Below are positions 1,878 through 45,325 of a DNA stretch of 64,000 nt, piece after piece. The notes under the pieces were generated by a model that was not told where the DNA came from, made no database searches, and saw only the letters and a list, made by a program, of their open reading frames with translations. The position numbers and the translations under genes were made by a program. The first letter of the stretch is position 1; each line of letters begins with the position of its first letter. The stretch is from the NCBI RefSeq assembly GCF_056712565.1, contig NZ_CM160072.1; one strand, given 5' to 3'.

Positions 1878-1887
1878 GGATATAAAG

Positions 1888-12810: not shown

Positions 12811-14283
12811 TTAGAATATGGACTGGAATTTAGCCATCTCAACCTGGATGGACTTCACCTGGGTGTAACTCTGGAGCGTCATCACTCCGTTCTCGCGACC
12901 AATGCCGGAGTGTTTGTAGCCGCCAACGGGCATCTCTGCCGGGGATTCGCCCCAGGTGTTGATCCAGCAAATACCCGCTTCCAGCTGATGAATGACGCGA
13001 TGCGCGAGGTTCAGGTCCGCCGTCACGATACCCGCCGCCAGACCGTAGTCGGTATCGTTAGCGCGGCGAATGACTTCGTCTTCCGACTCGTAGGTCAGAA
13101 TGGACATCACCGGCCCGAAAATCTCTTCTCGCACAATGGTCATATCGTCGCTGCAATCGGTGAACACGGTCGGTGCAACCCATGCGCCGTTATCGAAGCT
13201 ATCCCCCTTCAGTACATCGCCGCCGCACAGTACGCGCGCGCCTTCCTCTATGCCTTTGGCGATATAGCGCAGCACGTTATCGCGATGCGGGAAGCTGACC
13301 AGCGGGCCGAAGTTAGTTTGCGGATCGAAAACGTCGCCCGCGCGAATGCGCTCAACGCGCGCCAGAATCTTTTGTTCAAATGCGGCTTTGCATTTCGTCG
13401 GAACGAAGACGCGAGTGCCGTTGGTACACACCTGACCGGAGCTGAAGAAATTCGCCATCATGGTGATATCGGCGGCGAGATCGAGATCCGCATCGTCGAA
13501 AACGATCAGCGGTGATTTACCGCCCAGCTCCATGGTCACTTCTTTCAGGGAGGAAGCTGCCGAGTTAGCCATCACTTTTTTGCCGCTGGCGACACCCCCG
13601 GTAAATGACACTTTGGCAATGCCCGGATGATCGGTCAGATATTGCCCGGTCTCCGCGCCCACGCCCGGCAACACGTTAAATACACCGTCCGGCAGGCCCG
13701 CTTCGCTGTAAATTTCAGCCAGCTTTAACGCGGTAAGCGGGGTGACTTCGCTCGGTTTGAAGATCATCGCGTTACCCGCCGCCAGCGCGGGGGCGGATTT
13801 CCACAAAGCAATCTGGATCGGGTAGTTCCATGCGCCAATCCCCGCCACCACACCCAGCGGTTCGCGGCGGGTATAAACAAATGACGTCTCACGCAACGGG
13901 ATCTGGCTGCCTTCCAGCGCCGGGATCAGCCCGGCATAGTACTCCAGCACGTCCGCACCGGTAACGATATCGACGGTTGAGGTTTCCGAATATGCTTTTC
14001 CGGTGTCGAGGGTTTCCAGTTTTGCGAGTTCGTCATTGCGTTCACGCAGAATATCAACGGCCCGACGCAGAATACGCGAGCGTTCCATAGCGGTCATCGC
14101 CGCCCAGATTTTTTGCCCTTGTTGGGCACTCTTCACGGCGCGATCGACATCCTCACGCCCGGCGGCCTGCACGGTCGCCAGCACGTTACCGTTGGCCGGG
14201 TTAATGGTCTCGAAGGTGCGACCGCTGGTGGCGGAGGTATAACCACCATGTATATAAAGCTGCTGTTCTGCCATTCGGGACAT
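12811..14283 (-). CDS. betB: Betaine aldehyde dehydrogenase BetB
   Basis: 490-aa aldehyde dehydrogenase starting [14 protein letters not shown]; immediately upstream of betA. Confidence 0.95.
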
Positions 14284-19053: not shown

Positions 19054-19986
19054 TTAATTCTCCCGATGCAGTAAATCCTGATAGATCCCCGTTAATATGC
19101 CATTTGGCGCAAATTGTTTTTTAATCCACTGCGTCACCTGACCGGTGGCAGAGTGCTGGGTTGCGAGTAACATGCGTGAATCCTGGCGCGGGTTATGGAT
19201 TTGTCGGGTAACCAGCAAGGATTGCGCCATCGCCTCACGGACCATGTAATCCGGCAAAAAACCAATTCCTTCACCTAAAATCTGGCACTGACATTTGGTG
19301 TTGAAATCTGGCACCAGAATTGACTCCTGCCCATGCAGCAACCAGCCCACTTTTTTATTAATCGTATGCGCGGTGTCCTCCACCATGATATTAGGGTAGA
19401 GACGCAGCTGGCTTTCGGCGATCGGCTCCGGCACAAAGGCTAATGGGTGATCCGGGGCGATGGCAAAAGCCCAGCGAATCGCGCCAATCTCCGTGTAATC
19501 AATGCCGCCGCCGTCCAGCAGCGTGTCGGGCGCGCCGATGGCGATATTTGCCTGATTATTAATAATCGCATCCCAGACGCCGTTATACACTTCGGTCGTC
19601 ACGGTAATCTGGCAGGTAGGAAACTGCTTTTTCAGCACCTGTAATAAGCGCGCGGTGTGTTTGGGCGTATAAAGCAGCTGATTAATACAAATGCGCACAC
19701 GCGCTTCTATGCCCTGCGAAATAGTATCGATACTGCGTTTAATGGCGTGAAAATCATTCAGCAGGTCGGTAGCTTTGCGGAAAAAATAACGCCCGGACTC
19801 CGTTAACTCAATGCTGCGGGTACTGCGAGTGAACAGCACCACATCCAGCCCTGTTTCCATACGTTTAATGGTGTAGCTAATGGCGGAAGTGGTTAAACCC
19901 AACTCTTCTGCGGCTTTACTGAAGCTGCCAAAACGCGCAGCGGTAGTAAATGCCAACAGATTCTCTTCGGTAAAAATTGAGTTCAT
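19054..19986 (-). CDS. yahB: LysR-family transcriptional regulator YahB
   Basis: 310 aa with N-terminal LysR-type HTH. Confidence 0.85.
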   Translation of the reverse strand: MNSIFTEENLLAFTTAARFGSFSKAAEELGLTTSAISYTIKRMETGLDVVLFTRSTRSIELTESGRYFFRKATDLLNDFHAIKRSIDTISQGIEARVRICINQLLYTPKHTARLLQVLKKQFPTCQITVTTEVYNGVWDAIINNQANIAIGAPDTLLDGGGIDYTEIGAIRWAFAIAPDHPLAFVPEPIAESQLRLYPNIMVEDTAHTINKKVGWLLHGQESILVPDFNTKCQCQILGEGIGFLPDYMVREAMAQSLLVTRQIHNPRQDSRMLLATQHSATGQVTQWIKKQFAPNGILTGIYQDLLHREN

Positions 19987-20077
19987 CGACTCGCTCCCGC
20001 CATTTTCGATTCTGAATTTCTCCAGCCATGACTGTAGAGGTATCCATTAAAGATGGATAATCATTTTTGAATAACTT

Positions 20078-20575
20078 TTAATACCCGTCGCTTTTGGTCG
20101 TCGCTTCGCTTAATTTTTGTCCGCCGTATTCTGAAATTATCCCCACGCAGTTACCCGCCAGAAAACCCAGTAATGTCACCGTCCAGTTCATCCCGCTGGC
20201 AAAAAATAGCGTCATGCCGAGAAAGCCTCCGGGAATAAAAGACAGTAACCAGAAACGCCCTTGCCAGACCACCACCGCCGAGAAGGGTACAGTCGTAATC
20301 ACGCTCGCCCAGAACGCGGACAGTCCACTCACCGGGGCCAGCCAACCGGCAGCCAGCGCGGCGAAAAACGCCCACACCATCCCGGAATAATTAACCGCCA
20401 GGCTTTTGATAAACCCCGATTTACCGCCGCCTGCGGCATAAAAACTGCAAAAGGCGACGAAGCCAATGGTTCCTAATAATTCCCATCCCTGAGAGAGCCC
20501 GACATGTGAAGACACTAACTGCCAAAGCCCTGCACAAATACCGACGGTGACACCCGTTGCCGTGAGTCCGTTCAT
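20078..20575 (-). CDS. yahC: Inner-membrane protein YahC
   Basis: 165-aa strongly hydrophobic ORF in the K-12 position. Confidence 0.8.
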   Translation of the reverse strand: MNGLTATGVTVGICAGLWQLVSSHVGLSQGWELLGTIGFVAFCSFYAAGGGKSGFIKSLAVNYSGMVWAFFAALAAGWLAPVSGLSAFWASVITTVPFSAVVVWQGRFWLLSFIPGGFLGMTLFFASGMNWTVTLLGFLAGNCVGIISEYGGQKLSEATTKSDGY

Positions 20576-20832
20576 CTTGTTCCCCTCTGGTTAGACATGG
20601 ACGAAAGCTACTCTTACATGTGCAGACTATAGAGAAATAAAACCTGATTGAGTGAAAGGGTATCGGGTCAAAGAAACAAATATTGCACTACCGCACACGG
20701 CGAAAAGATTGTTGAACATCATTCAACAAAAAGGCGAAATACGGCGAATTAAATTTAAGCGGGTTCTTTTATCAGATTATCGTTGCTATTCTCAATTCAT
20801 CGAAAACAGCCACAAAAACCAGGTGAATGTGA

Positions 20833-21438
20833 ATGACTATAAAAAATCTACCTGCAGACTATTTATTGGCTGCGCAACAGGGGGATATCGATAAAGTAAA
20901 AATCTGCCTTGCGCTGGGTGTCGATATTAATACCTGCGATCGTCAGGGGAAAACGGCAATTACGCTGGCAAGTTTATATCAGCAATATGCTTGCGTTCAG
21001 GCATTAATTGACGCCGGAGCGAATATTAATAAACAAGATCATACCTGTTTAAATCCTTTTTTAATTAGCTGTCTGAACGATGATTTAACGCTACTACGAA
21101 TTATTTTACCGGCTAAACCCGATCTTAATTGCGTAACCCGTTTTGGCGGTGTCGGCCTGACGCCTGCCTGTGAAAAAGGCCATTTAAGTATTGTAAAAGA
21201 GCTTTTGGCGCATACGGAGATTAACGTTAACCAGACCAACCATGTTGGCTGGACGCCGCTACTGGAAGCGATTGTGCTTAATGATGGCGGGATTAAACAG
21301 CAGGCGATTGTCCAGTTATTACTGGAACACGGTGCCAGCCCGCATCTGACGGATAAATATGGCAAAACACCGCTGGAACTGGCGCGAGAACGGGGCTTTG
21401 AAGAGATTGCGCAGTTACTGATTGCCGCAGGCGCATAA
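20833..21438 (+). CDS. yahD: Ankyrin-repeat protein YahD
   Basis: 201 aa with tandem ankyrin-like repeats. Confidence 0.85.
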   Translation: MTIKNLPADYLLAAQQGDIDKVKICLALGVDINTCDRQGKTAITLASLYQQYACVQALIDAGANINKQDHTCLNPFLISCLNDDLTLLRIILPAKPDLNCVTRFGGVGLTPACEKGHLSIVKELLAHTEINVNQTNHVGWTPLLEAIVLNDGGIKQQAIVQLLLEHGASPHLTDKYGKTPLELARERGFEEIAQLLIAAGA

Positions 21439-21477
21439 ACCGGGAGGCTTGCTATCAACACACCAGAAAGACGGTGT

Positions 21478-22341
21478 GTGTGGGCGCTAACTGCGGATGC
21501 TGATTTTCTGGCGCAGCGGGGGCAAGGACAGGTTGAACAGGTCTTTGCCAGAGCGGTAAATATCGCACTCCCGGCTCGCCAGCAGTTGCTGACGCTGCTT
21601 TGTGAAGAGTACGACAATGCGCCAAACAGTTGTCGGTTGGCACTCACTCACTTTAATGGTCTGTTCCGGCATGGTGATAAGGTTCAGTTTGACGATCAAG
21701 GCATTACGGTTGGTCAACATCTTCATATAGAGATGAGTCATTGCCAGCGTTGGCTGTCCCCAACCTTGCAAATGACCGCTCTGAATTTTCACCTTATCGC
21801 CTGGCAACAGTGGCACGACATTATTCATCAGCACCTGGGGGAAAATGAAACCCTGTTTAATTATCGCGGCGATAATCCGTTTTATCAGGCGTTAAATAAA
21901 GAACTACATATTAAACGACGGGCAGTTATTCAGGCCGTAAACGATAAACAAAATATCGCCGTAGCGGTCGCCAGTATGATGGGCTTAGGGATTGGCCTTA
22001 CGCCATCAGCCGACGATTATTTAACAGGTCTGGCGCTTATTTTATTTCTTCCCGGACATCCGGCGGAAAAATACAAAGAGGAATTTTATCTCGGTCTGCA
22101 ACGCGGCAGAAATAATACCACGTTATTAAGTGCCATCACGCTGGAAGCCGCATTACAACAACGCTGCCGGGAAAATATTCATCGTTTTATTCACAACATT
22201 ATTTATGACATCCCTGGGAACGCAACTCAGGCAATAGAAAAAATTAAACATATTGGCTCCAGTTCCGGCTGCGACATGCTGTATGGCATGGCCGATGGTT
22301 GTGCGCTGAGTCAAACCTACGGAGGGAATTATGTCAGTTAA
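21478..22341 (+). CDS. yahE: DUF2877-family protein YahE
   Basis: 287-aa ORF; stop overlaps the yahF start. Confidence 0.8.
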   Translation: MWALTADADFLAQRGQGQVEQVFARAVNIALPARQQLLTLLCEEYDNAPNSCRLALTHFNGLFRHGDKVQFDDQGITVGQHLHIEMSHCQRWLSPTLQMTALNFHLIAWQQWHDIIHQHLGENETLFNYRGDNPFYQALNKELHIKRRAVIQAVNDKQNIAVAVASMMGLGIGLTPSADDYLTGLALILFLPGHPAEKYKEEFYLGLQRGRNNTTLLSAITLEAALQQRCRENIHRFIHNIIYDIPGNATQAIEKIKHIGSSSGCDMLYGMADGCALSQTYGGNYVS

Positions 22342-23878
22342 AATAGTCATTAAACCGAATACCTATTTTGATTCTGTCTCGCTGATGTCTATCTCCACGC
22401 GTGCAAATAAACTCGACGGCGTCGAGCAGGCATTTGTGGCGATGGCGACCGAAATGAACAAAGGCGTGTTGAAGAATTTAGGACTGCTGACGCCGGAGCT
22501 GGAGCAGGCGAAAAACGGCGACCTGATGATTGTCATCAATGGTAAATCGGGTGTGGACAACGAGCAGTTGCTGGCGGAGATTGAAGAACTGTTCAACACC
22601 AAAGCGCAAAGCGGCTCGCACGAGGCGCGTTACGCCACTATTGCCAGCGCCAAAAAGCATATCCCGGAAAGTAACCTGGCAGTGATTTCGGTCAACGGTC
22701 TGTTTGCCGCTCGCGAAGCGCGTCAGGCGCTGCAAAATGACCTCAACGTGATGCTGTTTTCCGATAATGTCTCAGTTGAAGATGAACTGGCGCTCAAACA
22801 GTTGGCCCATGAAAAAGGGCTGCTGATGATGGGGCCAGACTGCGGCACGGCGATTATCAACGGCGCGGCGCTCTGCTTTGGTAACGCCGTGCGTCGCGGC
22901 AACATCGGTATTGTTGGCGCATCTGGCACCGGCAGCCAGGAATTGAGCGTCCGTATCCATGAATTTGGTGGCGGCGTTTCACAACTGATCGGCACCGGCG
23001 GGCGCGACCTGAGCGAGAAAATCGGTGGCCTGATGATGCTCGATGCCATCGGGATGCTGGAAAACGATCCGCAAACTGAAATCATTGTGCTTATCTCCAA
23101 ACCGCCTGCGCCTGCGGTGGCCCGCAAAGTGCTGGAACGCGCACGCGCCTGCCGCAAGCCAGTGGTGGCCTGCTTCCTCGGTCGTGGCGAAACGCCAGTG
23201 GATGAGCAGGGGCTACAGTTTGCTCGCGGCAGCAAAGAGGCGGCATTGAAAGCGGTGATGCTCTCCGGCGTGAAACAAGAACATCTCGACCTGCATACGC
23301 TTAACCAGCCGTTGATTGCGGATGTGCGTGCGCGTCTGCAACCGCAGCAGAAATACATTCGTGGTCTGTTCTGCGGCGGTACGCTGTGTGACGAAACCCT
23401 GTTCGCGGTGATGGAAAAACATGGCGATGTCTACAGCAATATCCAGCCCGATCCTGAATTCCGCCTGCAAGATATCAACCGCAGCATCAAACATACCTTC
23501 CTCGACTTTGGCGATGATGACTTCACCAACGGCAAGCCGCATCCAATGATTGACCCGACCAACCGTATCAGCCGCGTGATCGAAGAAGCGCGCGATCCAG
23601 AAGTGGCGGTGATCGTGATGGATTTTGTTCTCGGATTTGGATCGCATGAAGATCCGGTCGGTTCCACCATCGAGGCGATCAAAGAAGCGAAAGCGATCGC
23701 CGCTGCCGAAGGACGCGAGTTGATCATTCTCGCCTATGTGCTGGGCACCGATCTCGATACGCCATCATTAGAACAACAAAGCCAGATGCTGCTTGATGCC
23801 GGAGTGATTCTGGCGAGCAGCAGCACCAATACCGGATTGCTGGCGCGTGAATTTATCTGCAAAGGGGAGGAAGCCTGA
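22331..23878 (+). CDS. yahF: FdrA-like acyl-CoA synthetase / succinyl-CoA ligase alpha-like protein YahF
   Basis: 515 aa with a CoA-binding-like region; start overlaps yahE, stop overlaps the yahG start (ATGA). Confidence 0.85.
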   Translation: MSVKIVIKPNTYFDSVSLMSISTRANKLDGVEQAFVAMATEMNKGVLKNLGLLTPELEQAKNGDLMIVINGKSGVDNEQLLAEIEELFNTKAQSGSHEARYATIASAKKHIPESNLAVISVNGLFAAREARQALQNDLNVMLFSDNVSVEDELALKQLAHEKGLLMMGPDCGTAIINGAALCFGNAVRRGNIGIVGASGTGSQELSVRIHEFGGGVSQLIGTGGRDLSEKIGGLMMLDAIGMLENDPQTEIIVLISKPPAPAVARKVLERARACRKPVVACFLGRGETPVDEQGLQFARGSKEAALKAVMLSGVKQEHLDLHTLNQPLIADVRARLQPQQKYIRGLFCGGTLCDETLFAVMEKHGDVYSNIQPDPEFRLQDINRSIKHTFLDFGDDDFTNGKPHPMIDPTNRISRVIEEARDPEVAVIVMDFVLGFGSHEDPVGSTIEAIKEAKAIAAAEGRELIILAYVLGTDLDTPSLEQQSQMLLDAGVILASSSTNTGLLAREFICKGEEA

Positions 23879-25296
23879 TGAGCCAGTCACTGTTTAGCCA
23901 ACCGTTGAACGTTATTAACGTCGGTATCGCCATGTTTAGCGATGATCTGAAAAAGCAGCATGTAGAAGTGACCCAACTCGACTGGACGCCGCCGGGGCAG
24001 GGCAATATGCAGGTGGTGCAGGCACTGGACAACATTGCCGATTCGCCACTGGCGGACAAAATCGCCTCCGCGAATCAGCAGGCGCTGGAGCGCATTATCC
24101 AGTCGCATCCGGTGCTGATTGGTTTTGATCAGGCGATTAACGTGGTGCCGGGCATGACGGCGAAAACCATTCTTCACGCCGGGCCGCCGGTCACCTGGGA
24201 AAAAATGTGCGGCGCGATGAAGGGCGCGGTCACCGGAGCGCTGGTGTTTGAAGGACTGGCGAAAGATCTCGACGAGGCGGCTGAGCTGGCGGCTTCCGGG
24301 GAGATCACCTTCTCGCCGTGCCACGAACACGACTGTGTGGGATCGATGGCGGGCGTCACCTCGGCCTCGATGTTTATGCACATCGTGAAAAACAAAACCT
24401 ATGGCAACATCGCTTATACCAACATGAGCGAGCAGATGGCGAAGATTTTGCGTATGGGCGCTAACGACCAGAGCGTGATCGACCGCCTCAACTGGATGCG
24501 CGATGTGCAGGGACCCATGCTGCGCGACGCGATGAAAATTATCGGCGAAATCGATCTGCGCTTAATGCTGGCGCAGGCGCTGCATATGGGCGATGAATGC
24601 CATAACCGCAATAACGCCGGGACGACGTTGCTGATTCAGGCGCTGACGCCAGGGATTATTCAGGCGGGCTATTCCGTCGAACAACAGCGGGAAGTGTTTG
24701 AGTTTGTCGCCAGCTGCGACTACTTCTCCGGCCCGACGTGGATGGCGATGTGTAAAGCGGCGATGGATGCGGCGCACGGCATTGAATACAGCACTGTGGT
24801 CACCACCATGGCGCGTAACGGCGTCGAGTTCGGCCTGCGGGTCAGCGGATTACCGGGGCAATGGTTTACCGGTCCGGCGCAGCAGGTGATCGGGCCGATG
24901 TTTGCCGGTTATAAGCCGGAAGATTCGGGGCTGGATATCGGCGACAGCGCCATCACTGAAACCTACGGCATTGGCGGATTTGCCATGGCGACCGCGCCTG
25001 CAATCGTCGCGCTGGTGGGCGGTACGGTGGAAGAGGCTATCGATTTCTCCCGCCAGATGCGTGAAATCACTCTCGGTGAAAACCCCAACGTCACCATTCC
25101 GCTGCTCGGTTTTATGGGCGTGCCGTCGGCAATCGACATCACCCGCGTGGGCAGCAGCGGCATTCTGCCGGTGATCAACACCGCCATTGCCCATAAAGAT
25201 GCGGGCATCGGCATGATTGGCGCGGGCATTGTGCATCCACCCTTCGCCTGCTTCGAGAAAGCCATTTTTGGCTGGTGCGAACGTTACGGCGTCTGA
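23878..25296 (+). CDS. yahG: DUF1116-family protein YahG
   Basis: 472-aa ORF translationally coupled to yahF. Confidence 0.85.
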   Translation: MSQSLFSQPLNVINVGIAMFSDDLKKQHVEVTQLDWTPPGQGNMQVVQALDNIADSPLADKIASANQQALERIIQSHPVLIGFDQAINVVPGMTAKTILHAGPPVTWEKMCGAMKGAVTGALVFEGLAKDLDEAAELAASGEITFSPCHEHDCVGSMAGVTSASMFMHIVKNKTYGNIAYTNMSEQMAKILRMGANDQSVIDRLNWMRDVQGPMLRDAMKIIGEIDLRLMLAQALHMGDECHNRNNAGTTLLIQALTPGIIQAGYSVEQQREVFEFVASCDYFSGPTWMAMCKAAMDAAHGIEYSTVVTTMARNGVEFGLRVSGLPGQWFTGPAQQVIGPMFAGYKPEDSGLDIGDSAITETYGIGGFAMATAPAIVALVGGTVEEAIDFSRQMREITLGENPNVTIPLLGFMGVPSAIDITRVGSSGILPVINTAIAHKDAGIGMIGAGIVHPPFACFEKAIFGWCERYGV

Positions 25297-25314
25297 TCTG
25301 TAAAGTGCGCGTTG

Positions 25315-25405
25315 TTTCTGCCGGATGCGGCGTGAACGCCTTATCCGGCCTACGAGTGGCGCAAGAATCTGTAGGCCTGATAAGCGTAGCGCATCAGGCA
25401 GTCTG
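25315..25405. repeat. REP (repetitive extragenic palindromic) elements
   Basis: gccggatgcggcgtgaacgccttatccggcctac and the inverted tgtaggcctgataagcg...catcaggc motifs between yahG and yahI. Confidence 0.8.
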
Positions 25406-25449
25406 GCGTTGGTCATAACCCCATCACCCTCTGTCGCGGACATAACAAC

Positions 25450-26400
25450 ATGAAAGAACTTGTGGTCGTTGCCATTGGTGGCAACAGCATTATCAAAGAT
25501 AACGCCAGCCAGTCGATTGAGCATCAGGCGGAGGCGGTGAAAGCCGTGGCCGATACGGTGCTGGAAATGCTGGCTTCCGATTACGACATTGTGCTGACCC
25601 ATGGCAACGGGCCGCAGGTCGGGCTGGATTTACGCCGCGCGGAGATTGCCCACGAGCGCGAAGGGCTGCCCTTAACGCCGCTGGCGAACTGTGTGGCGGA
25701 TACGCAAGGTGGCATTGGCTATCTGATCCAGCAGGCGCTGAACAACCGACTGGCGCGTCACGGCGAGAAAAAAGCCGTCACCGTGGTGACTCAGGTAGAA
25801 GTGGATAAAAACGATCCGGGGTTTGCCCATCCCATCAAACCCATTGGCGCATTCTTTAGTGAAAGCCAGCGTGACGAACTACAAAAGGCAAACCCTGACT
25901 GGCGTTTTGTTGAAGATGCCGGACGGGGCTATCGCCGCGTGGTCGCCTCGCCGGAACCGAAACGTATTGTCGAAGCACCTGCCATTAAGGCGCTGATCCA
26001 ACAAGGCTTTGTGGTGATTGGCGCGGGCGGCGGCGGAATTCCGGTAGTGCGTACTGACGCGGGGGATTACCAAAGCGTGGACGCGGTTATCGACAAAGAT
26101 CTCTCTACCGCGCTACTGGCTCGCGAAATTCACGCCGACATTCTGGTGATCACCACTGGCGTCGAAAAAGTGTGTATTCACTTTGGCAAACCGCAGCAGC
26201 AGGCGCTGGATCGCGTAGATATTGCCACCATGACCCGCTATATGCAGGAAGGGCATTTCCCACCTGGCAGCATGTTGCCAAAAATCATCGCCAGCCTGAC
26301 GTTCCTGGAACAAGGCAGCAAAGAAGTGATTATCACCACGCCGGAATGCCTGCCTGCGGCGCTACGCGGCGAAACGGGCACCCATATTATTAAAACCTAA
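25450..26400 (+). CDS. yahI: Carbamate kinase-like protein YahI
   Basis: 316 aa; amino-acid kinase family features at the N-terminus. Confidence 0.85.
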   Translation: MKELVVVAIGGNSIIKDNASQSIEHQAEAVKAVADTVLEMLASDYDIVLTHGNGPQVGLDLRRAEIAHEREGLPLTPLANCVADTQGGIGYLIQQALNNRLARHGEKKAVTVVTQVEVDKNDPGFAHPIKPIGAFFSESQRDELQKANPDWRFVEDAGRGYRRVVASPEPKRIVEAPAIKALIQQGFVVIGAGGGGIPVVRTDAGDYQSVDAVIDKDLSTALLAREIHADILVITTGVEKVCIHFGKPQQQALDRVDIATMTRYMQEGHFPPGSMLPKIIASLTFLEQGSKEVIITTPECLPAALRGETGTHIIKT

Positions 26401-26409
26401 GGACGTAAG

Positions 26410-27792
26410 ATGAAAGAAAACAATAGCCGCCGTGAATTTCTGAGCCAGAGCGGTAAGATGGTCACCGCCGCCGCGCTGTTTGGTCCCTCAGTGCCGCTCG
26501 CCCATGCGGGGGTAGCTGGCACCCTAAACTGCGAAGCGAACAACACCATGAAAATCACTGACCCGTATTACTATCTCGATAACGTGCTGCTGGAAACCGG
26601 TTTTGACTACGAAAATGGCGTGGCGGTGCAGACCCGCACGGCGCGCCAGACTGTGGAAATTCAGAACGGTAAAATTGTTGCCCTGCGCGAGAACAAGCAG
26701 CATCCGGACGCCACGCTGCCGCACTATGACGCTGGCGGTAAGCTTATGTTGCCCACTACTCGCGACATGCATATTCATCTCGACAAAACCTTTTACGGCG
26801 GACCGTGGCGCTCACTCAATCGCCCTGCAGGCACCACCATCCAGGACATGATTAAGCTCGAGCAAAAAATGCTGCCGGAACTGCAACCCTACACTCAGGA
26901 GCGGGCAGAAAAACTGATCGATTTATTGCAGTCGAAAGGCACCACCATTGCCCGCAGCCACTGCAATATCGAACCGGTTTCCGGCCTGAAAAATCTGCAA
27001 AATTTGCAGGCGGTGCTGGCGCGACGTCAGGCGGGCTTCGAGTGTGAAATCGTCGCCTTCCCGCAGCACGGTTTGCTGCTGTCGAAATCGGAACCCTTAA
27101 TGCGCGAAGCGATGCAGGCGGGGGCGCATTACGTCGGCGGGCTGGACCCGACCAGTGTTGATGGCGCGATGGAAAAATCCCTCGACACCATGTTCCAGAT
27201 TGCACTGGACTACGACAAAGGCGTCGATATTCACCTGCACGAAACCACTCCGGCAGGCGTAGCGGCCATCAATTATATGGTTGAAACAGTGGAGAAAACG
27301 CCGCAACTGAAGGGCAAGCTGACCATCAGCCACGCCTTTGCGCTGGCAACGCTCAATGAGCAACAGGTAGATGAACTGGCGCACCGGATGGCGGCGCAGC
27401 AAATTTCTATCGCCTCGACGGTGCCGATTGGCACGTTGCATATGCCGCTCAAACAACTGCACGACAAAGGCGTAAAAGTGATGACCGGCACCGACAGCGT
27501 TATCGACCACTGGTCGCCTTACGGCCTGGGCGACATGCTGGAAAAAGCCAATCTCTACGCGCAGCTCTATATTCGTCCTAACGAACAGAATTTGTCCCGT
27601 TCGCTGTTTTTAGCCACTGGCGATGTATTGCCGCTCAACGAAAAAGGCGAGCGTGTGTGGCCTAAAGCGCAGGATGACGCCAGCTTTGTGCTGGTGGACG
27701 CCTCCTGTTCCGCCGAGGCGGTGGCGCGTATCTCGCCGAGAACGGCGACGTTCCATAAAGGGCAACTGGTGTGGGGGAGTGTGGCAGGTTGA
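26410..27792 (+). CDS. yahJ: Metal-dependent amidohydrolase/deaminase YahJ with Tat-type signal
   Basis: 460 aa; N-terminal SRREFL twin-arginine motif. Confidence 0.85.
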   Translation: MKENNSRREFLSQSGKMVTAAALFGPSVPLAHAGVAGTLNCEANNTMKITDPYYYLDNVLLETGFDYENGVAVQTRTARQTVEIQNGKIVALRENKQHPDATLPHYDAGGKLMLPTTRDMHIHLDKTFYGGPWRSLNRPAGTTIQDMIKLEQKMLPELQPYTQERAEKLIDLLQSKGTTIARSHCNIEPVSGLKNLQNLQAVLARRQAGFECEIVAFPQHGLLLSKSEPLMREAMQAGAHYVGGLDPTSVDGAMEKSLDTMFQIALDYDKGVDIHLHETTPAGVAAINYMVETVEKTPQLKGKLTISHAFALATLNEQQVDELAHRMAAQQISIASTVPIGTLHMPLKQLHDKGVKVMTGTDSVIDHWSPYGLGDMLEKANLYAQLYIRPNEQNLSRSLFLATGDVLPLNEKGERVWPKAQDDASFVLVDASCSAEAVARISPRTATFHKGQLVWGSVAG

Positions 27793-28089
27793 TACGAACT
27801 TGATATGTCTGCAACGGTGAACAGTAAGAGATTTAAGCCCCAGGGAGTGGGGCATCAATGGTTTGCTAATGAATGATCCTGAACTTTATAATCTCCGGGC
27901 ATAATTTCCAGGGGATTATTTGAGAGAAATACACAAAAGTGAGTTTTAACAAAGGTATTTATCAAGCCATAAATGTGACCTGCTTCGGATAAAAAGATTA
28001 AACATAGAAAAACCAATGATCCTCTTGCTGATGGTTATCAACAGTAATTAAGATGTGATTTGTTTTTCCGTAATCGCGAAAATATTCTC

Positions 28090-28500
28090 ATGACCATAAA
28101 AGAAAAAATCTCACAAAAATATCCCCATGCTTCCTTTTGTACTTTTGGCGATTCAGCAGCGTTGGCCGATCACCTCGCAACGTTGATTGCGACTGGTGTT
28201 AAAACAGCTTCCTGTGGTTCGCTGGCGGGATGTATTGAAGACAACGCATTTCCGATGATTGGGGAGTATAAGATTGTAGAAAATAGCCGTGGTGAGCCTG
28301 TCTGTGTTATCAGAGTAATTGGCCTGCATTTACTGCGCTTTTCTGATGTCACCGCGGAGCTTGCCCGTAAGGAAGGTGAAGGTGACCTCAGTCTTGAATA
28401 TTGGCGTAATGAACACCGTCGTTTTTTCCAGGCAGAAGGATGCTATTCACCCGAAATGGACGTTATCTTTGAAGAATATGCCCTTATTGACGTTGTGTAG
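28090..28500 (+). CDS. Hypothetical protein; weak, unverified resemblance to ASCH-type small proteins. Start uncertain (TTG at 28060 or ATG at 28090)
   Basis: 136-146 aa ORF in an AT-rich stretch upstream of the ABC transporter; not in the K-12 gene order as I recall it. Confidence 0.45.
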   Translation: MTIKEKISQKYPHASFCTFGDSAALADHLATLIATGVKTASCGSLAGCIEDNAFPMIGEYKIVENSRGEPVCVIRVIGLHLLRFSDVTAELARKEGEGDLSLEYWRNEHRRFFQAEGCYSPEMDVIFEEYALIDVV

Positions 28501-28750
28501 ATAACTATTTTTCTACGCGAAATAAGCTCACAAACATAAAGTATCGCTAATTTTGTTTATTTTGCTATTTTTTACGTGATGATTGTCACACTTATTGTTA
28601 CTGCCCGTTTTGTCCATATTTATAACCAAATTTTTAATAGCTGCCTGAAATAGGGCTGTTTATTCTGCATAAAAATATTCGAAAATTCTTATTCTCTCCA
28701 GCGCGCTAATTTGGGCGAACACTTCCTGACTACCCTGCAATGAGGCTGAA

Positions 28751-29737
28751 ATGATGAATAAACGTTTTGTTATCAATATGGTGTCTTCGCTGTTATTAGG
28801 CGCTGCGCTAATTTCTGCGCCGCTCCAGGCCGCGGAAAAAGTCGTGGTGAATATCTCTAAAGTCGATGGTATGCCGTGGTTTAATCGCATGGGCGAAGGT
28901 GTGGTTGAGGCGGGTAAAGCCTTTGGTGTTAATGCGTCACAGGTGGGGCCTTCAAGTACTGATGCTCCACAACAAGTTAAAATTATTGAGGATTTAATCG
29001 CCCGTAAGGTTAATGCAATTACAATTGTGCCAAACGATGCCAACGTGCTGGAACCGGTATTCAAAAAAGCGCGAGATGCCGGAATTGTGGTTCTGACCAA
29101 CGAATCCCCCGGTCAGCCAAGTGCTAACTGGGATATCGAAATCATTGATAACGAAAAATTTGCCGCTGAATATGTTGAGCATATGGCGAAACGCATGGGT
29201 GGCAAGGGCGGCTATGTGATTTACGTGGGTAGTTTGACCGTGCCGCAGCATAACTTATGGGCTGACTTGCTGGTGAAATACCAGAAAGAGCATTACCCGG
29301 ATATGCATGAAGTTACCCGCCGCATGCCGGTTGCCGAGAGTGTGGATGACTCACGTCGTACTACACTGGACCTGATGAAAACCTATCCTGACTTGAAAGC
29401 GGTTGTCTCCTTTGGTTCAAACGGTCCGATTGGCGCGGGACGTGCAGTGAAAGAGAAACGGGCGAAAAATAAAGTCGCAGTCTATGGCATGATGATCCCT
29501 TCACAGGCGGCATCACTGATTAAAAGTGGTGATATCACCGAAGGGATTACTTACGATCCGGCCTCTGCAGGTTACGCACTCGCGGCCGTCGCCAGCACGT
29601 TGCTGAAGGGTGAAGAGATCAAACCTGGATTAGAAATGCAGAATCTGGGTAAGGCCGACGTAGATATGGATAAGCGAATTATCCGTTTCCATAAGGTATT
29701 ACTGGTCAACAAAGACAATATCGACTCACTTTATTAA
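28751..29737 (+). CDS. Periplasmic sugar-binding protein of a CUT2-family ABC transporter, LsrB-like
   Basis: 328 aa with signal peptide; C-terminus KVLLVNKDNIDSLY resembles the LsrB C-terminus as I recall it; GAGG motif upstream. Confidence 0.8.
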   Translation: MMNKRFVINMVSSLLLGAALISAPLQAAEKVVVNISKVDGMPWFNRMGEGVVEAGKAFGVNASQVGPSSTDAPQQVKIIEDLIARKVNAITIVPNDANVLEPVFKKARDAGIVVLTNESPGQPSANWDIEIIDNEKFAAEYVEHMAKRMGGKGGYVIYVGSLTVPQHNLWADLLVKYQKEHYPDMHEVTRRMPVAESVDDSRRTTLDLMKTYPDLKAVVSFGSNGPIGAGRAVKEKRAKNKVAVYGMMIPSQAASLIKSGDITEGITYDPASAGYALAAVASTLLKGEEIKPGLEMQNLGKADVDMDKRIIRFHKVLLVNKDNIDSLY

Positions 29738-29785
29738 TCCATTTCTTCGGGGCGAAAGCCCCGATTCTTATTGCCAGGGGATGTT

Positions 29786-31270
29786 ATGGAAACCTTCCTT
29801 TCCCTTCGTCATATCAACAAAACGTTTCATGCCACGCGAGCGCTGCGCGATGTTTCTCTCGACTTTATGTCGGGTGAAGTGCACTGTCTTGCCGGGCAAA
29901 ACGGCTGTGGTAAATCGACGTTGATTAAAATTATGTCCGGTGTTTATCGCCCGGATGAGGGAGCGGAAATTACGCTTGGTGGGAAAAACTGGTCAAAGCT
30001 GACACCCGCCGCTTCGGTGGCGCAGGGGATTCAGGTGATTTATCAGGACCTCTCTTTATTTCCTAACCTGAGTGTCTGGGAGAATATCGCCGTGAATCAC
30101 TATCACCACGGTCTGTTTGTTAACCGACGTCGTCTGCGTGAGGTGGCGCAGGCGGCAATGACCAGTATTAACGTCACATTGCCACTGGATACGCTCGTTT
30201 CTGAGCTTTCAATTGCCCGCTGTCAGCTGGTGGCAATTTGCCGTGCACTGGCGCAGGACGCACGGTTGATCGTGATGGATGAACCAACCGCTTCGCTGAC
30301 CCATCAGGAAGTGCAAGGGTTATTACAGGTGGTGCATCAATTGCGGGAACGCGGGATCTGCGTGGTCTTCGTCAGTCATCGTCTGGAAGAAGTGATGGAA
30401 GTTTCCGACCGTATTTCAGTGCTGAAAGATGGTGAGCTGGTCGGGACCTTTCCGGCCGCAGAGATGACCACAAAACAACTCGGTTTTCTGATGACCGGCC
30501 AGGAGTTTGAATATCAGGTGCGAGAGTTGTGGCAGGGAAAATCCAGCACCCCGGTGCTGGAGGTGCGTAATTTAAGTCGTCATGGGGAATATCTAAATAT
30601 TAACTTGCGGGTGGAAGCGGGCGAAGTGGTATCGATTGTTGGCCTGCTTGGTGCGGGGCGCACGGAATTATGTCTGAGTCTGTTTGGTATGACCCGACCG
30701 GATGCTGGCGAGATCCTCATCAACGGCCAGCTGGTTACACTGCATAGTAACCAGGACGCCATCCGCCACGGTATTGGTTATGTTTCGGAAGATCGCATGT
30801 CGCGCGGTTTGGTGATGGCGCAATCTATTGAAGACAACATCATTAGCACTGTTTTTCACAAGGTAAAAGATCGCTTCGGCTTTCTGAGTGAAGCTAAAGT
30901 GTGTGACCTGGTGGACAGGCTAATCAAGGCATTGACCATCAAAGTCTCTGATCCTCATCTCCCGGTGAATACGCTTTCTGGTGGTAACGCGCAGCGAGTA
31001 TCGATCGCCAAATGGCTGGCGATTGGGCCACGACTGTTGATTCTCGATAGCCCGACAGTCGGTGTTGATATCGCCAACAAAGCAGGAATATACGGCATTA
31101 TCAGCGATCTGGCGGCTCATGGCATTGCGGTATTGATGATCTGCGATGAAATTGAAGAAGCGTGGTATCAAAGCCACCGGATTTTGGTAATGCAAAAAGG
31201 TCAGATCACCCATAGCTTCCTGCCTGACAGCAGTTCTCAGGCCAGGATTGCGGAGGTGGTAAATGGCTGA
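29786..31270 (+). CDS. ABC transporter ATP-binding protein with duplicated ATPase domains (RbsA/LsrA-like)
   Basis: Two nucleotide-binding domains (GQNGCGKST; GLLGAGRTE); start at METFLSL with AGGGGA upstream. Confidence 0.85.
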   Translation: METFLSLRHINKTFHATRALRDVSLDFMSGEVHCLAGQNGCGKSTLIKIMSGVYRPDEGAEITLGGKNWSKLTPAASVAQGIQVIYQDLSLFPNLSVWENIAVNHYHHGLFVNRRRLREVAQAAMTSINVTLPLDTLVSELSIARCQLVAICRALAQDARLIVMDEPTASLTHQEVQGLLQVVHQLRERGICVVFVSHRLEEVMEVSDRISVLKDGELVGTFPAAEMTTKQLGFLMTGQEFEYQVRELWQGKSSTPVLEVRNLSRHGEYLNINLRVEAGEVVSIVGLLGAGRTELCLSLFGMTRPDAGEILINGQLVTLHSNQDAIRHGIGYVSEDRMSRGLVMAQSIEDNIISTVFHKVKDRFGFLSEAKVCDLVDRLIKALTIKVSDPHLPVNTLSGGNAQRVSIAKWLAIGPRLLILDSPTVGVDIANKAGIYGIISDLAAHGIAVLMICDEIEEAWYQSHRILVMQKGQITHSFLPDSSSQARIAEVVNG

Positions 31271-32234
31271 ACTGAAAAAACGCCATGAATTCTGGCTGGC
31301 ATTACTGATTGTGGTGCTGTTTGTTGGCCTTGCCTGGCGCAGCGACGAGTTTCTGACATTCGGTAATTTGTACGATCTCGCCAATAACTATGCCATGTTG
31401 ACTATTCTCGCCTGTGGTTTGTTTGTGGTGTTAATTTCCGGTGGGATTGATATTTCGTTTCCGGCAATGACCATCATTGCGCAATACGGCATGGTGCTGC
31501 TGCTGCAAAAAATTGGTGGCAACTTTGCTGTCGCGTTTGCCCTGGCGGGCGGCATCGGCATTTTACTTGGCTTAATTAACGCCTTACTGGTTAATCGCCT
31601 ACGGGTGCCTTCTATCATCATCACTATCTCGACGCTGAATATTTTTTATGGCCTGCTGTTATGGTTGAGTAAAGGTGTGTGGCTGTACGACTTTCCGCCG
31701 TGGTTTGAGCAGGGGGTAATGTTGTTCAAGTACACCGATGCTGATGGCTATGACTATGGCCTTGGTCTGCCGCTGATCGCCATGATTACGGTGGTGCTGC
31801 TGACAGCGTTTATCATGAATTTCACCAGTGTAGGGCGCAAAATTTATGCCCTTGGCGGGAACCGCGAATCAGCCAGTCGCATCGGCTTTAGTGTGCTGAA
31901 ACTGCAACTTTTCGTCTATGGCTATATGGGATTGATGTCTGGTGCTGCGGGTGTAGTGCAGTCGTGGACGGTGATGACTGTCGCCCCCGATTCTCTTCTG
32001 GGTTATGAGCTGACAGTACTGGCTGCGGTGGTGCTTGGCGGCACTAGTTTGCTCGGCGGGCGCGGCACGTTAACCGGTACTTTGCTCGGCGTGGTGTTGT
32101 TGGCAGTGATGCAAAACGGGCTAAATTTATTGGGAGTCTCGTCTTACTGGCAAACATTGATCACCGGCATCATCATCGTTGCCAGCATTAGCGCCACGGC
32201 GTGGAGTCAGCATCAGAACCGGAGTCTGCTATGA
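31263..32234 (+). CDS. ABC transporter permease (RbsC/LsrC-like)
   Basis: 323-aa polytopic membrane protein; start overlaps the ATPase stop. Confidence 0.85.
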   Translation: MAELKKRHEFWLALLIVVLFVGLAWRSDEFLTFGNLYDLANNYAMLTILACGLFVVLISGGIDISFPAMTIIAQYGMVLLLQKIGGNFAVAFALAGGIGILLGLINALLVNRLRVPSIIITISTLNIFYGLLLWLSKGVWLYDFPPWFEQGVMLFKYTDADGYDYGLGLPLIAMITVVLLTAFIMNFTSVGRKIYALGGNRESASRIGFSVLKLQLFVYGYMGLMSGAAGVVQSWTVMTVAPDSLLGYELTVLAAVVLGGTSLLGGRGTLTGTLLGVVLLAVMQNGLNLLGVSSYWQTLITGIIIVASISATAWSQHQNRSLL

Positions 32235-33187
32235 AAAAATCGTGGCGTAATAACGTTGAGTTTTACTTGATCGGCCTGCTGGTGCTAACTGTTGCCGCCT
32301 TCAGCATTACTATGCCGGAGATTTTCTGGTCGATAAGTAATTTCCAGTCCGTCGCTTCGCAAATGCCCGTGCTGGGCATTCTGGCGTTGGCTATGGCGGT
32401 GACCATGCTTTGCGGTGGCATTAACTTGTCAATTATAGCCACTGCTAACGCCTGTTCACTGGTGATGGCGTGGGTGGCGACTCAGTATCCACCAGGTATT
32501 GCTACGGTTGTCGCTACGCTGCTGGCGGGCGCTGGCGCGGCGGTGATAATCGGTTTATGTAACGGCGTATTGATTGCTGGTATTCGAGTGTCGCCAATTC
32601 TTGCAACACTTGGGATGATGACGTTGCTCAAAGGGGTTAATATTCTGGTGACAGGCGGTAGCGCCATTGCCAATTATCCCTCATGGGTGCTGTGGTTGAA
32701 TCATGCACAGTGGTTCGGTATTCCGCTACCGATGTGGTTGTTTACCGCAGTGGCGCTGGGGCTGTGGATATTGCTGGAGAAAACGCCGCTCGGTAAATCC
32801 ATTTATCTGATTGGTTCTAACGAACGAGCAACACTTTACTCCGGTATTAACACTCGTCGGGTGCTGATATGGGTGTATGTCATTTCCGCCTTGCTTTGTG
32901 CGGTAGCGGCATTTTTGATGATGTCGAAACTCAACTCGGCTAAGGCCTCTTATGGCGAATCTTACTTGCTGGTGTCAATCCTCGCGGCAGTACTCGGCGG
33001 GGTTAATCCGGACGGCGGCAGCGGGCGGATAATTGGTATGGTGCTGGCGCTGTTTCTTCTGCAAATTATTGAAAGCGGCTTCAATATTCTCGGTATAAGC
33101 CCCTACCTGACGATGGCCTTATGGGGAACGTTGCTGCTCTGTTTCATTCAGGCTCGCGGCATGTTAGGGCTGGATCGGGTGGTTTAA
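32231..33187 (+). CDS. ABC transporter permease (RbsC/LsrD-like)
   Basis: About 318-aa membrane protein; ATGA overlap with the upstream permease. Confidence 0.85.
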   Translation: MKKSWRNNVEFYLIGLLVLTVAAFSITMPEIFWSISNFQSVASQMPVLGILALAMAVTMLCGGINLSIIATANACSLVMAWVATQYPPGIATVVATLLAGAGAAVIIGLCNGVLIAGIRVSPILATLGMMTLLKGVNILVTGGSAIANYPSWVLWLNHAQWFGIPLPMWLFTAVALGLWILLEKTPLGKSIYLIGSNERATLYSGINTRRVLIWVYVISALLCAVAAFLMMSKLNSAKASYGESYLLVSILAAVLGGVNPDGGSGRIIGMVLALFLLQIIESGFNILGISPYLTMALWGTLLLCFIQARGMLGLDRVV

Positions 33188-44065: not shown

Positions 44066-45325
44066 GTGTCGCAAGATAACAACTTTAGCCAGGGGCCAGT
44101 CCCGCAGTCGGCGCGGAAAGGGGTATTGGCATTGACGTTCGTCATGCTGGGATTAACCTTCTTTTCCGCCAGTATGTGGACCGGCGGCACTCTCGGAACC
44201 GGTCTTAGCTATCATGATTTCTTCCTCGCAGTTCTCATCGGTAATCTTCTCCTCGGTATTTACACTTCATTTCTTGGTTACATTGGCGCAAAAACCGGCC
44301 TGACCACCCATCTTCTTGCTCGCTTCTCGTTTGGTGTTAAAGGCTCATGGTTGCCTTCACTGCTGCTGGGCGGCACCCAGGTTGGCTGGTTTGGCGTTGG
44401 CGTGGCGATGTTTTCTATTCCGGTGGGCAAGGCAACCGGGCTGGATATTAATTTGCTGATTGCCGTCTCCGGTTTACTGATGACCGTCACCGTCTTCTTT
44501 GGCATTTCGGCGCTGACGGTTCTTTCGGTGATTGCGGTTCCGGCTATCGCCTGCCTTGGCGGTTATTCCGTGTGGCTGGCCGTTAACGGCATGGGCGGCC
44601 TGGACGTATTAAAAGCGGTCGTTCCCGCACAACCGTTAGATTTCAATGTCGCGCTGGCGCTGGTTGTGGGGTCATTCATCAGTGCGGGTACGCTCACCGC
44701 TGACTTTGTCCGGTTTGGTCGCAATGCCAAACTGGCGGTGCTGGTGGCGATGGTGGCCTTTTTCCTCGGCAACTCGTTGATGTTTATTTTCGGTGCAGCG
44801 GGCGCTGCGGCACTGGGGATGGCGGATATCTCTGATGTGATGATTGCTCAGGGCCTGCTGCTGCCTGCGATTGTGGTGCTGGGGCTGAATATCTGGACCA
44901 CCAACGATAACGCGCTCTATGCGTCGGGTTTAGGTTTCGCCAACATTACCGGTATGTCGAGCAAAACCCTTTCGGTGATTAACGGTATTATCGGTACGGT
45001 CTGCGCATTATGGCTGTATAACAATTTTGTCGGCTGGTTGACCTTCCTTTCGGCAGCTATTCCTCCAGTGGGCGGCGTGATCATCGCTGATTATCTGATG
45101 AACCGTCGCCGCTATGAGCACTTTGCGACCACGCGTATGATGAGTGTCAATTGGGTGGCGATTCTGGCGGTCGCGCTGGGGATTGCCGCAGGCCACTGGT
45201 TACCGGGAATTGTTCCGGTCAACGCGGTATTAGGTGGCGCGCTGAGCTATCTGATCCTTAACCCGATTTTGAATCGTAAAACGACAGCAGCAATGACGCA
45301 TGTGGAGGCTAACAGTGTCGAATAA
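44066..45325 (+). CDS. codB: Cytosine permease CodB
   Basis: 419 aa; GTG start after a G-rich Shine-Dalgarno; NCS1-family membrane protein. Confidence 0.95.

Follow-up and report, generated by a model that had tools for sequence, protein, structure and literature searches.

A separate lineage of AllFGH-related genes, the yah cluster of Escherichia coli, and its possible role in recovering ammonia and ATP from ureido groups

The window analyzed here is a 64,000-nucleotide stretch of contig NZ_CM160072.1 (assembly GCF_056712565.1), and this study concerns the yah genes of E. coli contained in it, namely yahE, yahF, yahG, yahI, and yahJ in the interval 21478–27792, and the upstream genes yahB, yahC, and yahD. 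The products are relatives of the oxamate transcarbamylase AllFGH, a carbamate kinase family protein, and a putative exported amidohydrolase. The original prediction, made from the sequence alone, had named the five genes of the interval and their protein families; all five open reading frames (ORFs) were found to be open at exactly the predicted coordinates, and Pfam and NCBIfam agreed with the families. The features are as follows.

19054–19986, minus strand: yahB, LysR-type regulator; closest curated families AllS and PunR, neither cutoff reached
20078–20575, minus strand: yahC, small polytopic membrane protein (DUF1097, by Pfam)
20576–20832, no strand: divergent yahC/yahD intergenic region, presumed from position only to be the YahB control region
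20833–21438, plus strand: yahD, predicted cytoplasmic ankyrin-repeat protein, first operon gene (from its sequence)
21478–22341, plus strand: yahE, AllH-like (DUF2877) subunit (by Pfam AllH/PF11392)
22331–23878, plus strand: yahF, AllF/FdrA-like subunit with a succinyl-CoA-synthetase-alpha-like fold (by NCBIfam FdrA)
23878–25296, plus strand: yahG, AllG-like (DUF1116) subunit (by Pfam AllG/PF06545)
25297–25449, no strand: repetitive extragenic palindromic (REP) and bacterial interspersed mosaic elements (BIME), the "yahH" site of strain K-12 (by REP palindromes)
25450–26400, plus strand: yahI, carbamate kinase family protein (by NCBIfam PRK12352)
26410–27792, plus strand: yahJ, putative Tat-exported metal amidohydrolase of the cytosine deaminase/AtzC clade (by NCBIfam PRK06846)
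about 26410–26508, plus strand: predicted signal peptide of YahJ (by its Tat, twin-arginine translocation, motif)

The genes are tightly packed, with overlaps of 11 nt between yahE and yahF and 1 nt between yahF and yahG and a spacer of 9 nt between yahI and yahJ. A scan of 19900–28300 found no terminator-like site on the plus strand inside yahD–yahJ; a consensus promoter scan of the same region gave fewer sites than shuffled sequence, and nothing above chance was found in the yahC/yahD intergenic region. The interval 21478–27792 is 100% identical to that of avian pathogenic E. coli (APEC) O1 (NC_008563.1, 363486–369800) and of related B2 strains, and the genes are named in RefSeq for APEC O1 as yahE (DUF2877), fdrA-like, yahG (DUF1116), yahI (carbamate kinase family), and yahJ (amidohydrolase). 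The 153-nt gap between yahG and yahI is REP/BIME sequence with typical REP palindromes. The corresponding gap in K-12, in which yahEFG is intact, is 421 nt long and contains the doubtful ORF yahH.

The presence of the cluster was counted in 5426 complete E. coli genomes at a coverage of at least 80%. When queried separately, yahEFG and yahIJ were present in 5020 and 5035 genomes, respectively (each approximately 93%), with nucleotide identities of 90–100%. The query with the whole interval reached the same coverage in only 3074 of the 5426 genomes, which is an artefact caused by the variable REP array splitting the match; approximately 33 scattered matches per genome were obtained with this query because the yahG–yahI gap is REP/BIME sequence. 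IS1 insertions, truncations, and absences of the cluster were seen occasionally, and none of the yah genes carried a pseudogene flag among the E. coli records listed. The literature searched yielded no functional study of yahB to yahJ, DUF1116, or DUF2877, the only entries being a y-ome list, genome announcements, and a virulence screen of Tat substrates. In the y-ome survey of 2024, yahC, yahE, yahG, yahI, and yahJ remain uncharacterized (PMC11551758).

The three adjacent genes yahE, yahF, and yahG encode AllH-, AllF-, and AllG-like proteins, respectively, the family composition of AllFGH. YahE matched Pfam AllH (PF11392, former DUF2877) with an E-value of 3.7e-28, and YahG matched AllG (PF06545, former DUF1116) with an E-value of 1.8e-88. 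YahF scored 493 bits against the FdrA subfamily of NCBIfam (cutoff, 433 bits) and matched the FdrA structure 3dmy in PDB with an E-value of 3.8e-83; no solved relative of YahE was found in the PDB search. The original prediction had likened the cluster to the fdrA-ylbE-ylbF-ybcF genes of the allantoin region and had staked this likeness on four pairwise alignments. All of them were significant: YahF/AllF (39% identity, E 1e-102), YahG/AllG (46%, 2e-119), YahE/AllH (24%, 9e-10), and YahI/AllK (38%, 1e-56). The link that it had drawn between those genes and an oxamate carbamoyltransferase plus a carbamate kinase is experimental, since purified AllF-AllG-AllH is the oxamate transcarbamylase (Kim & Kim 2024, PMC11326118) and AllK (YbcF) is the catabolic carbamate kinase of the allantoin pathway (Kim & Kim, PMC9843812, PMC11326118). 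The alignments and the biochemistry of AllFGH together support the proposed resemblance to a carbamoyl-transfer pathway. The yah genes are not mentioned in the AllFGH paper (PMC11326118).

Tree placement and gene context indicated that Yah is a lineage separate from All and not a duplicate of it. YahG was 75–79% identical to proteins of Brevibacillus, Paenibacillus, Peribacillus, Psychrobacillus, and Janthinobacterium and 64–70% identical to those of Trichococcus, Oceanobacillus, and Jeotgalibaca and to PDB 3CLQ (70%). The YahG-type proteins of Enterobacterales, Aeromonas, Janthinobacterium, and six Bacilli genera were 64–92% identical to YahG, whereas their identity to AllG was only 44–48%. 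In a neighbor-joining tree, the YahG-type proteins formed one clade, and E. coli AllG paired with the G protein of Enterococcus gilvus (59%), which is encoded in an allantoin cluster with the order allD-allC-allE-allD-fdrA-G-H-arcC-PucR. As YahG lies outside the AllG clade and no all genes occur near yah, YahEFG was not assigned as an orthologue of AllFGH. In K-12, the loss of allF, allG, or allFGH completely ends oxamate formation from allantoin (PMC11326118); because yahEFG is intact in this strain, Yah does not serve as a backup for All under those conditions.

The two lineages also differ at the boundary between the F and G genes. The first ~55 residues of YahG (23878–24045) were homologous to the last ~45 residues of AllF from E. 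coli and E. gilvus, with local alignment scores of 67–79 against a shuffle mean of 23 (standard deviation, 4.8), which none of 500 shuffles reached. A small module therefore lies on different sides of the F/G gene boundary in Yah and All, which gives a hint that F and G may be physically joined.

YahI scored 647 bits against the carbamate kinase subfamily PRK12352 of NCBIfam (cutoff, 266 bits) and matched the solved carbamate kinases 1e19 and 1b7b with E-values of 3.5e-81 and 2.7e-72, respectively. Its score against the ArcC equivalog TIGR00746 was 342.5 bits, just under the cutoff of 358.25 bits, and it was not assigned as ArcC. Given this narrow miss, the specificity of YahI may be shifted from that of ArcC. 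The closest E. coli paralogue of YahI was YqeA (45% identity, E 3e-88), which is closer than AllK. A few database entries contain fused YahI-YahJ products of 677–780 residues with AA_kinase and amidohydrolase domains; these may have arisen by loss of the stop codon across the 9-nt spacer or by an error in assembly or gene calling.

YahJ scored 715 bits against the NCBIfam "amidohydrolase" PRK06846 (cutoff, 447 bits). Against the cytosine deaminase families, the scores were 103, 82, and 69 bits, under the cutoffs of 438, 483, and 403 bits, respectively, and YahJ was not assigned as an orthologue of CodA. The best PDB matches were 6nbo, a protein named AtzC (4e-44), AtzC 2qt3 (3e-30), and cytosine deaminases (7e-20 to 4e-14). 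Similarity between SsnA and YahJ was negligible (E 0.005 over 75 residues), and a relationship was rejected. In the alignment of YahJ with CodA, H121, H123, Q219, H275, E278, H308, and D362 were invariant, so that YahJ has the HxH motif, two further His residues, the Asp, and the Glu of HxxE. We take the CodA counterparts of these residues to be the metal ligands, the catalytic Glu, and, at the position of Q219, the substrate-binding Gln. Judged by these residues, YahJ looks like a working deaminase.

The N-terminus of YahJ, MKENNSRREFLSQSGKMVTAAALFGPSVPLAHA, contains a twin-arginine motif, a hydrophobic stretch, and an AxA site (SRREFLS ... AHA) and was predicted to be a Tat signal. The RRxF[LIVM] motif was kept in 82 of 84 YahJ orthologues. 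YahJ is among the predicted Tat substrates examined in a mouse infection study of extraintestinal pathogenic E. coli, in which deleting yahJ lowered the competitive index to 0.70 (p = 0.022; PMC7549933). In the window, codB-codA, encoding cytosine permease and cytosine/isoguanine deaminase, is located at 44066–46598, 16–19 kb downstream of yahJ.

Eighty species loci were fetched around YahJ orthologues and scored with the window proteins, and 57 of these were complete. The layouts yahB / yahD-E-F-G-permease-I-J, the same without yahE (yahB / yahD-F-G-permease-I-J), and the Escherichia type, with yahC present and the permease absent, were found in 29, 17, and 11 species loci, respectively. Six other loci contained only yahB-yahD-yahJ, approximately nine contained yahJ alone, and the remaining ones were cut by contig ends or degraded. 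Citrobacter, Enterobacter, and Providencia kept the full gene set, including the permease. The fastest-evolving gene of the cluster was yahE, with identities of 29–64% in other genera and 93% in E. albertii, whereas its neighbors showed 70–98%. The dispensability of yahE in 17 species fits the observation that allFG without allH restored 7% of oxamate production (PMC11326118). The small ORFs upstream of solitary yahJ in Xenorhabdus and Shewanella showed no similarity to YahD or to anything informative. In Pseudocitrobacter, YahF, YahG, YahI, and YahJ were 95–99% identical to those of E. coli, and YahC, YahD, and YahE only 54–75%, a mosaic that suggests recent recombination or partial cluster transfer between genera. 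In Leclercia adecarboxylata NCTC13032, the matches to yahB, yahF, yahI, and the permease were partial or far more diverged than in neighboring species, which suggests that this cluster is a decaying copy.

The suggestion that the upstream genes belong to the same unit held for yahB and yahD, both of which adjoined the cluster in 63 of the 80 loci; yahC was confined to the Escherichia-type variant. YahB scored 268 bits against AllS (cutoff, 372 bits) and 239 bits against PunR (cutoff, 345 bits) in NCBIfam and is therefore a paralogue of AllS rather than AllS itself. Its identities in the 63 loci were 66–97%, and the Janthinobacterium orthologue was 70% identical. YahD, whose sequence contains no signal peptide, had orthologues in Janthinobacterium (68%) and Brevibacillus (53%) and longer ankyrin (Ank)/TPR relatives in other Bacilli clusters, and its gene adjoins yahJ even in the minimal yahB-yahD-yahJ loci.

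In 46 of the 57 complete loci, a gene for a polytopic permease of 516 residues (permease516) was located between yahG and yahI, and its products were 84–100% identical among loci. The REP elements of Escherichia are exactly at this site, and tblastn detected no remnant of the permease gene in the window. Sequence searches with the permease against Pfam, NCBIfam, and PDB gave no match, and its database name, "xanthine permease / AGZA family", comes from the records only; comparison with GhxQ gave a BLAST E-value of 0.4 and an hhalign probability of 2%. Its AlphaFold model was of low confidence (mean pLDDT, 52), so that the top fold matches, all to transporters of the SLC26/BicA, UraA, AZG2, and SLC4 group with TM-scores of approximately 0.3, are suggestive only. 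YahC is a hydrophobic protein that matched Pfam DUF1097 (2.5e-27) and showed no similarity at E < 1e-3 to the other membrane proteins linked to the clusters. Permease and yahC were perfectly exclusive among the complete loci (46 with the permease and 11 with yahC). YahC is thus a candidate replacement for the absent permease, as a lead only.

Loci of the Yah clade outside Enterobacterales were organized as follows (CK, carbamate kinase).

Janthinobacterium: Ank-H-F-G-permease516-CK-LysR; yahJ absent
Brevibacillus: PucR / Ank-H-F-G-NCS1 permease-CK-zinc deaminase of 150 residues
Paenibacillus: order as in Brevibacillus, with only an Ank remnant of 95 residues and no adjacent PucR
Psychrobacillus: PucR / H-F-G-Ank (387 residues)-CK-NCS1 permease-deaminase, then permease516
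Trichococcus: PucR / amidohydrolase-amidohydrolase-Ank-H-F-G-membrane protein-triple RidA
Oceanobacillus and Peribacillus: two or three YahJ-family amidohydrolases near PucR / H-F-G-...-CK
Jeotgalibaca: PucR / permease516-Ank-F-G
Contig encoding a protein 100% identical to 3CLQ: PucR / H-F-G-membrane protein of 393 residues

The amidohydrolases of Trichococcus, Oceanobacillus, and Peribacillus were 36–40% identical to YahJ, and the three that were scanned (two from Trichococcus and one from Peribacillus) exceeded the PRK06846 cutoff, as YahJ does. The small zinc deaminase of the Bacilli clusters was nearest to the guanine deaminase of B. subtilis (1.5e-31), and the NCS1 permease was nearest to allantoin permeases (434 bits, under the cutoff). 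The recurring set comprises an ankyrin protein, H/F/G, carbamate kinase, a transporter, a deaminase-type hydrolase, and a purine-type regulator, either PucR or an AllS/PunR-like LysR protein. Four unrelated kinds of transporter and two unrelated folds of the hydrolase occur, and most loci have most members of the set, not all. The exchange of parts for unrelated proteins of like general activity argues most strongly for a single pathway. RidA-family (enamine/imine deaminase) genes were present at or near the clusters of Trichococcus (12971–14236 and 1533–1910 of the fetched locus) and Brevibacillus (2297–2677), and one product of 422 residues has three Rid domains. These neighbors may mean that the pathway yields its amide as an unstable enamine or imine.

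Further F/G/H cassettes were found with other partners. The tkt1 island of APEC O1 (NC_008563.1, 4319796–4327992), which is outside the window, encodes a cysteine hydrolase, DUF2877, FdrA, and DUF1116 proteins, carbamate kinase, an "allophanate hydrolase-related protein", cytosine permease, and a LysR protein, and may act on biuret or allophanate-type compounds. The IncK plasmid p135-1 has the same layout, cysteine hydrolase included. In plasmid pSR8 of Aminobacter sp. SR38, F/G/H and the kinase lie beside a CodA-like amidohydrolase and AtzD (551 bits; cutoff, 360 bits), which is cyanuric acid amidohydrolase. In each of these cassettes, the partner is a hydrolase that makes or handles an open-chain ureide, which shows that F/G/H plus kinase is a reusable module for obtaining ATP from urea-type groups. 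APEC O1 carries three F/G/H copies, namely yah, the tkt1 island, and all; the last was inferred from matches in 5425 of the 5426 E. coli genomes. In related APEC strains, a fourth copy is located on a plasmid.

A second, Citrobacter-like yah cluster was observed on the IncF conjugative plasmid pEND_Eco 18055 of APEC strain E18055 (NZ_CP126941.1, 137352–145785). It has the order yahB-yahD-yahE-yahF-yahG-permease516-yahI, lacks yahJ, and adjoins IS100. Over the interval 21478–27792, the E18055 chromosome matches the window with 100% identity; given the complementary gene content, the plasmid brings the permease that the chromosome lacks, and the chromosome brings the yahJ that the plasmid lacks. 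Approximately 64 plasmid records, mostly from E. coli and otherwise from other Enterobacteriaceae, contained a YahG relative with 80–90% identity.

Elsewhere in the window, an ASCH-domain gene and a four-gene sugar/"autoinducer 2"-type ABC transporter (28090–33187) separate yahJ from yahK. In K-12, yahK is directly 3′ of yahJ, and yahL is present instead of the ASCH and ABC transporter genes. The gene ykgF at 1887–3315, encoding a LutB-type iron-sulfur protein of lactate oxidation, carries a frameshift annotation in the identical record of APEC O1.

We propose, with a confidence that we put at about even, that yahD-E-F-G-(REP)-I-J and the divergent yahC-yahB form a self-contained catabolic cassette, paralogous to allFGHK yet distinct from it, whose role is to recover ammonia and ATP from the ureido (N-acyl-urea) moiety of some nitrogen heterocycle or acyl-guanidine, a compound related to purines or pyrimidines being the likeliest. 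An N-acyl-urea is what cytosine, guanine, and creatinine deaminases form from an amidine or acyl-guanidine, and it has the type of bond that AllFGH cleaves in oxalurate. The deaminase likeness of YahJ and this N-acyl-urea chemistry lead us to propose deamination, uptake, phosphorolysis, and ATP formation; the catalytic steps, their order, and the substrate class are what we infer from the homologies, the catalytic residues and Tat signal of YahJ, the clade separation, and the gene neighborhoods. YahJ would be folded with its metal in the cytoplasm, exported by Tat, and catalyze in the periplasm a hydrolytic deamination, or possibly a ring opening, that turns an amidine or guanidine function into a urea function. 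The ureide product would be imported by permease516 in most genera; in Escherichia, which lacks it, YahC is the sole candidate substitute. A YahE-YahF-YahG complex would then cleave the N-carbamoyl bond with phosphate to yield carbamoyl phosphate and an amide, and YahI would use the carbamoyl phosphate to phosphorylate ADP, with ATP, ammonia, and CO2 as the products. The operon would be under the control of YahB, which is related to AllS and PunR, and YahD would be a conserved accessory protein.

The maintenance of the operon in approximately 93% of the 5426 E. coli genomes counts in favor of this cassette, and several observations weigh against it. The enzymes of the E. coli cluster include no obvious ring-opening hydrolase, so that a heterocyclic substrate would need YahJ, YahEFG, or spontaneous chemistry to open its ring. 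YahJ is predicted to be periplasmic while YahE, YahF, YahG, and YahI are predicted to be cytoplasmic, and Escherichia has no dedicated permease; the link of YahC to its absence is probably one evolutionary event, because the 11 loci come from related genera. Moreover, yahE is absent from 17 of the 57 complete loci, solitary YahJ orthologues occur in Xenorhabdus, Photorhabdus, Shewanella, Labrys, and elsewhere, and the cassettes of Janthinobacterium and the APEC plasmid lack yahJ. Expression or phenotype data for yahE, yahF, yahG, and yahI were not found in the literature searched.

The main rival to this proposal is that YahEFG duplicates the oxamate transcarbamylase, with oxalurate itself as the substrate. 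This oxalurate would not derive from allantoin but, for example, from parabanic acid or another oxalyl-ureide converted by YahJ-type hydrolases. This would agree with the fold and subunit set shared with AllFGH and with the 70% identity between YahG and 3CLQ, which we take to be an Enterococcus faecalis protein and whose identical counterpart is encoded in a PucR / H-F-G-membrane protein locus. Oxamate transcarbamylase activity in extracts of Streptococcus faecalis and induction by parabanic acid in a Streptococcus also fit, as far as they are cited in PMC11326118 (its references 22 and 23). However, the K-12 deletions of allF, allG, and allFGH produce no oxamate from allantoin despite yahEFG, the Yah clade is sharply apart from AllG (44–48%), Enterococcus has an All-type cluster beside its allantoin genes, and oxalurate needs neither a deaminase nor a nucleobase-type permease as a partner. 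We regard this alternative as rather unlikely. The RefSeq name of YahF raises another reading, that it is an acyl-CoA synthetase and the cluster activates a carboxylic acid with CoA. Pfam CoA_binding and Ligase_CoA do match YahF homologues, and YahF resembles the succinyl-CoA synthetase alpha subunit with E-values down to 5.5e-18, but purified AllF-AllG-AllH worked from oxamate and carbamoyl phosphate in a CoA-free mixture (PMC11326118), and the constant partner is carbamate kinase, not thioesterase, transferase, or beta-oxidation genes, which makes this reading highly improbable.

Two other alternatives concern the cluster as a whole. YahJ, with YahD and YahB, could be a periplasmic deaminase module, and yahEFG-yahI a separate module of unrelated function inserted between yahD and yahJ. 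Six species with only yahB-yahD-yahJ, approximately nine with yahJ alone, the D-E-F-G-permease-I arrangement without yahJ on the APEC plasmid and its like in Janthinobacterium, and the different cell compartments of the two modules speak for such a division. Nevertheless, in 58 species the insertion between yahD and yahJ falls inside a single transcription unit, and unrelated Bacilli again pair H-F-G with YahJ-family amidohydrolases or an analogous deaminase, which chance hardly explains; we consider the division doubtful. Alternatively, the Escherichia cluster could be a decaying remnant, with the pathway idle for want of the permease and the genes kept by inertia. The permease gene has given way to REP elements without a detectable remnant, yahE diverges fast, IS1 insertions, truncations, and absences occur occasionally in E. 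coli, the copy of L. adecarboxylata NCTC13032 is visibly degraded, and no laboratory phenotype is known. Decay is difficult to reconcile, however, with the intact reading frames in the window, the lack of a pseudogene flag among the E. coli records listed, identities of 90–100% in approximately 93% of the genomes, the 95–98% identity of YahF, YahG, YahI, and YahJ to the Pseudocitrobacter proteins, and the small in vivo cost of the yahJ deletion (PMC7549933). We judge it to be slightly less probable than the two-module alternative.

Within the catabolic cassette that we favor, a more specific version, which we hold to be unlikely, is that Yah conserves energy from an abundant acyl-guanidine or amino-heterocycle of host origin. 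Deamination would produce an N-acyl-urea, either cyclic or linear; YahEFG, to which YahD may belong as a fourth component, would split it with phosphate, and the ring may open in that same reaction. YahI would then make ATP. Candidates include creatinine or glycocyamidine, an oxidation product of guanine or urate, for example, guanidinohydantoin or a parabanate-type ring, and isocytosine or triazine-type bases. If this were true, it would be an undescribed ATP-yielding catabolic pathway common to gut and urinary Enterobacterales and soil Bacilli and would give the first substrate range for the new transcarbamylase superfamily.

With these results, what had been a vague "carbamate kinase-like cluster" becomes a defined pathway that can be tested, and the chemical classes to try are few. 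New here are the separation of Yah from All, the gene set recurring across phyla, and the absence of the permease from Escherichia, all as read from the sequences. Yah appears as a distinct lineage, very strongly conserved across phyla, with its own deaminase, transporter, ankyrin protein, and regulator, and AllFGH, to which it is most closely related, was recognized as an entirely new kind of transcarbamylase only in 2024. Because its permease is absent, E. coli may be a poor choice for finding the phenotype; Citrobacter, Enterobacter, and Providencia have the full set.

Among known systems, the arginine and agmatine deiminase pathways follow the same logic, from a guanidino or amidino group through a ureido group and carbamoyl phosphate to ATP via carbamate kinase, and use the same kinds of genes (hydrolase, transcarbamylase, kinase, and transporter). 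Yah differs from them in that its transcarbamylase does not have the ornithine/aspartate transcarbamylase (OTC/ATC) fold, no antiporter was identified, and the deaminating enzyme belongs to the amidohydrolase or cytidine deaminase superfamily rather than to the guanidino-modifying fold and is predicted to be periplasmic in Proteobacteria. With YahJ, CodA shares the fold, the metal-ligand-aligned residues, and the catalytic Glu and Gln at approximately 25% identity; CodA is cytoplasmic and encoded with codB, whereas YahJ has a predicted Tat signal. AtzC, an s-triazine hydrolase, has the same amidohydrolase superfamily fold as YahJ. In the purine-related ygeW-ygeX-ygeY-hyuA-yqeA cluster, YqeA too adjoins a carbamoyltransferase, to which no substrate is assigned, but YgeW is a classical transcarbamylase-family protein, unlike the F/G/H enzyme of Yah.

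The cassettes of the tkt1 island, p135-1, and pSR8 have the same four-protein core as Yah, and each has a hydrolase, a transporter, and a regulator of its own; the G proteins, with 46% identity to YahG, branch separately, and the partner hydrolases differ. The closest system is AllFGH with AllK, in which the same three protein families and a carbamate kinase are encoded side by side with an AllS-type LysR gene nearby, as in Yah. The three genes follow one another as H-F-G in Yah and as F-G-H in All, and the ~45-residue module is located at the N-terminus of YahG and at the C-terminus of AllF, respectively. Yah has no allantoin genes nearby, yahEFG does not replace AllFGH in vivo, and Yah adds an ankyrin protein, a predicted Tat-exported amidohydrolase, and, outside Escherichia, its own permease.

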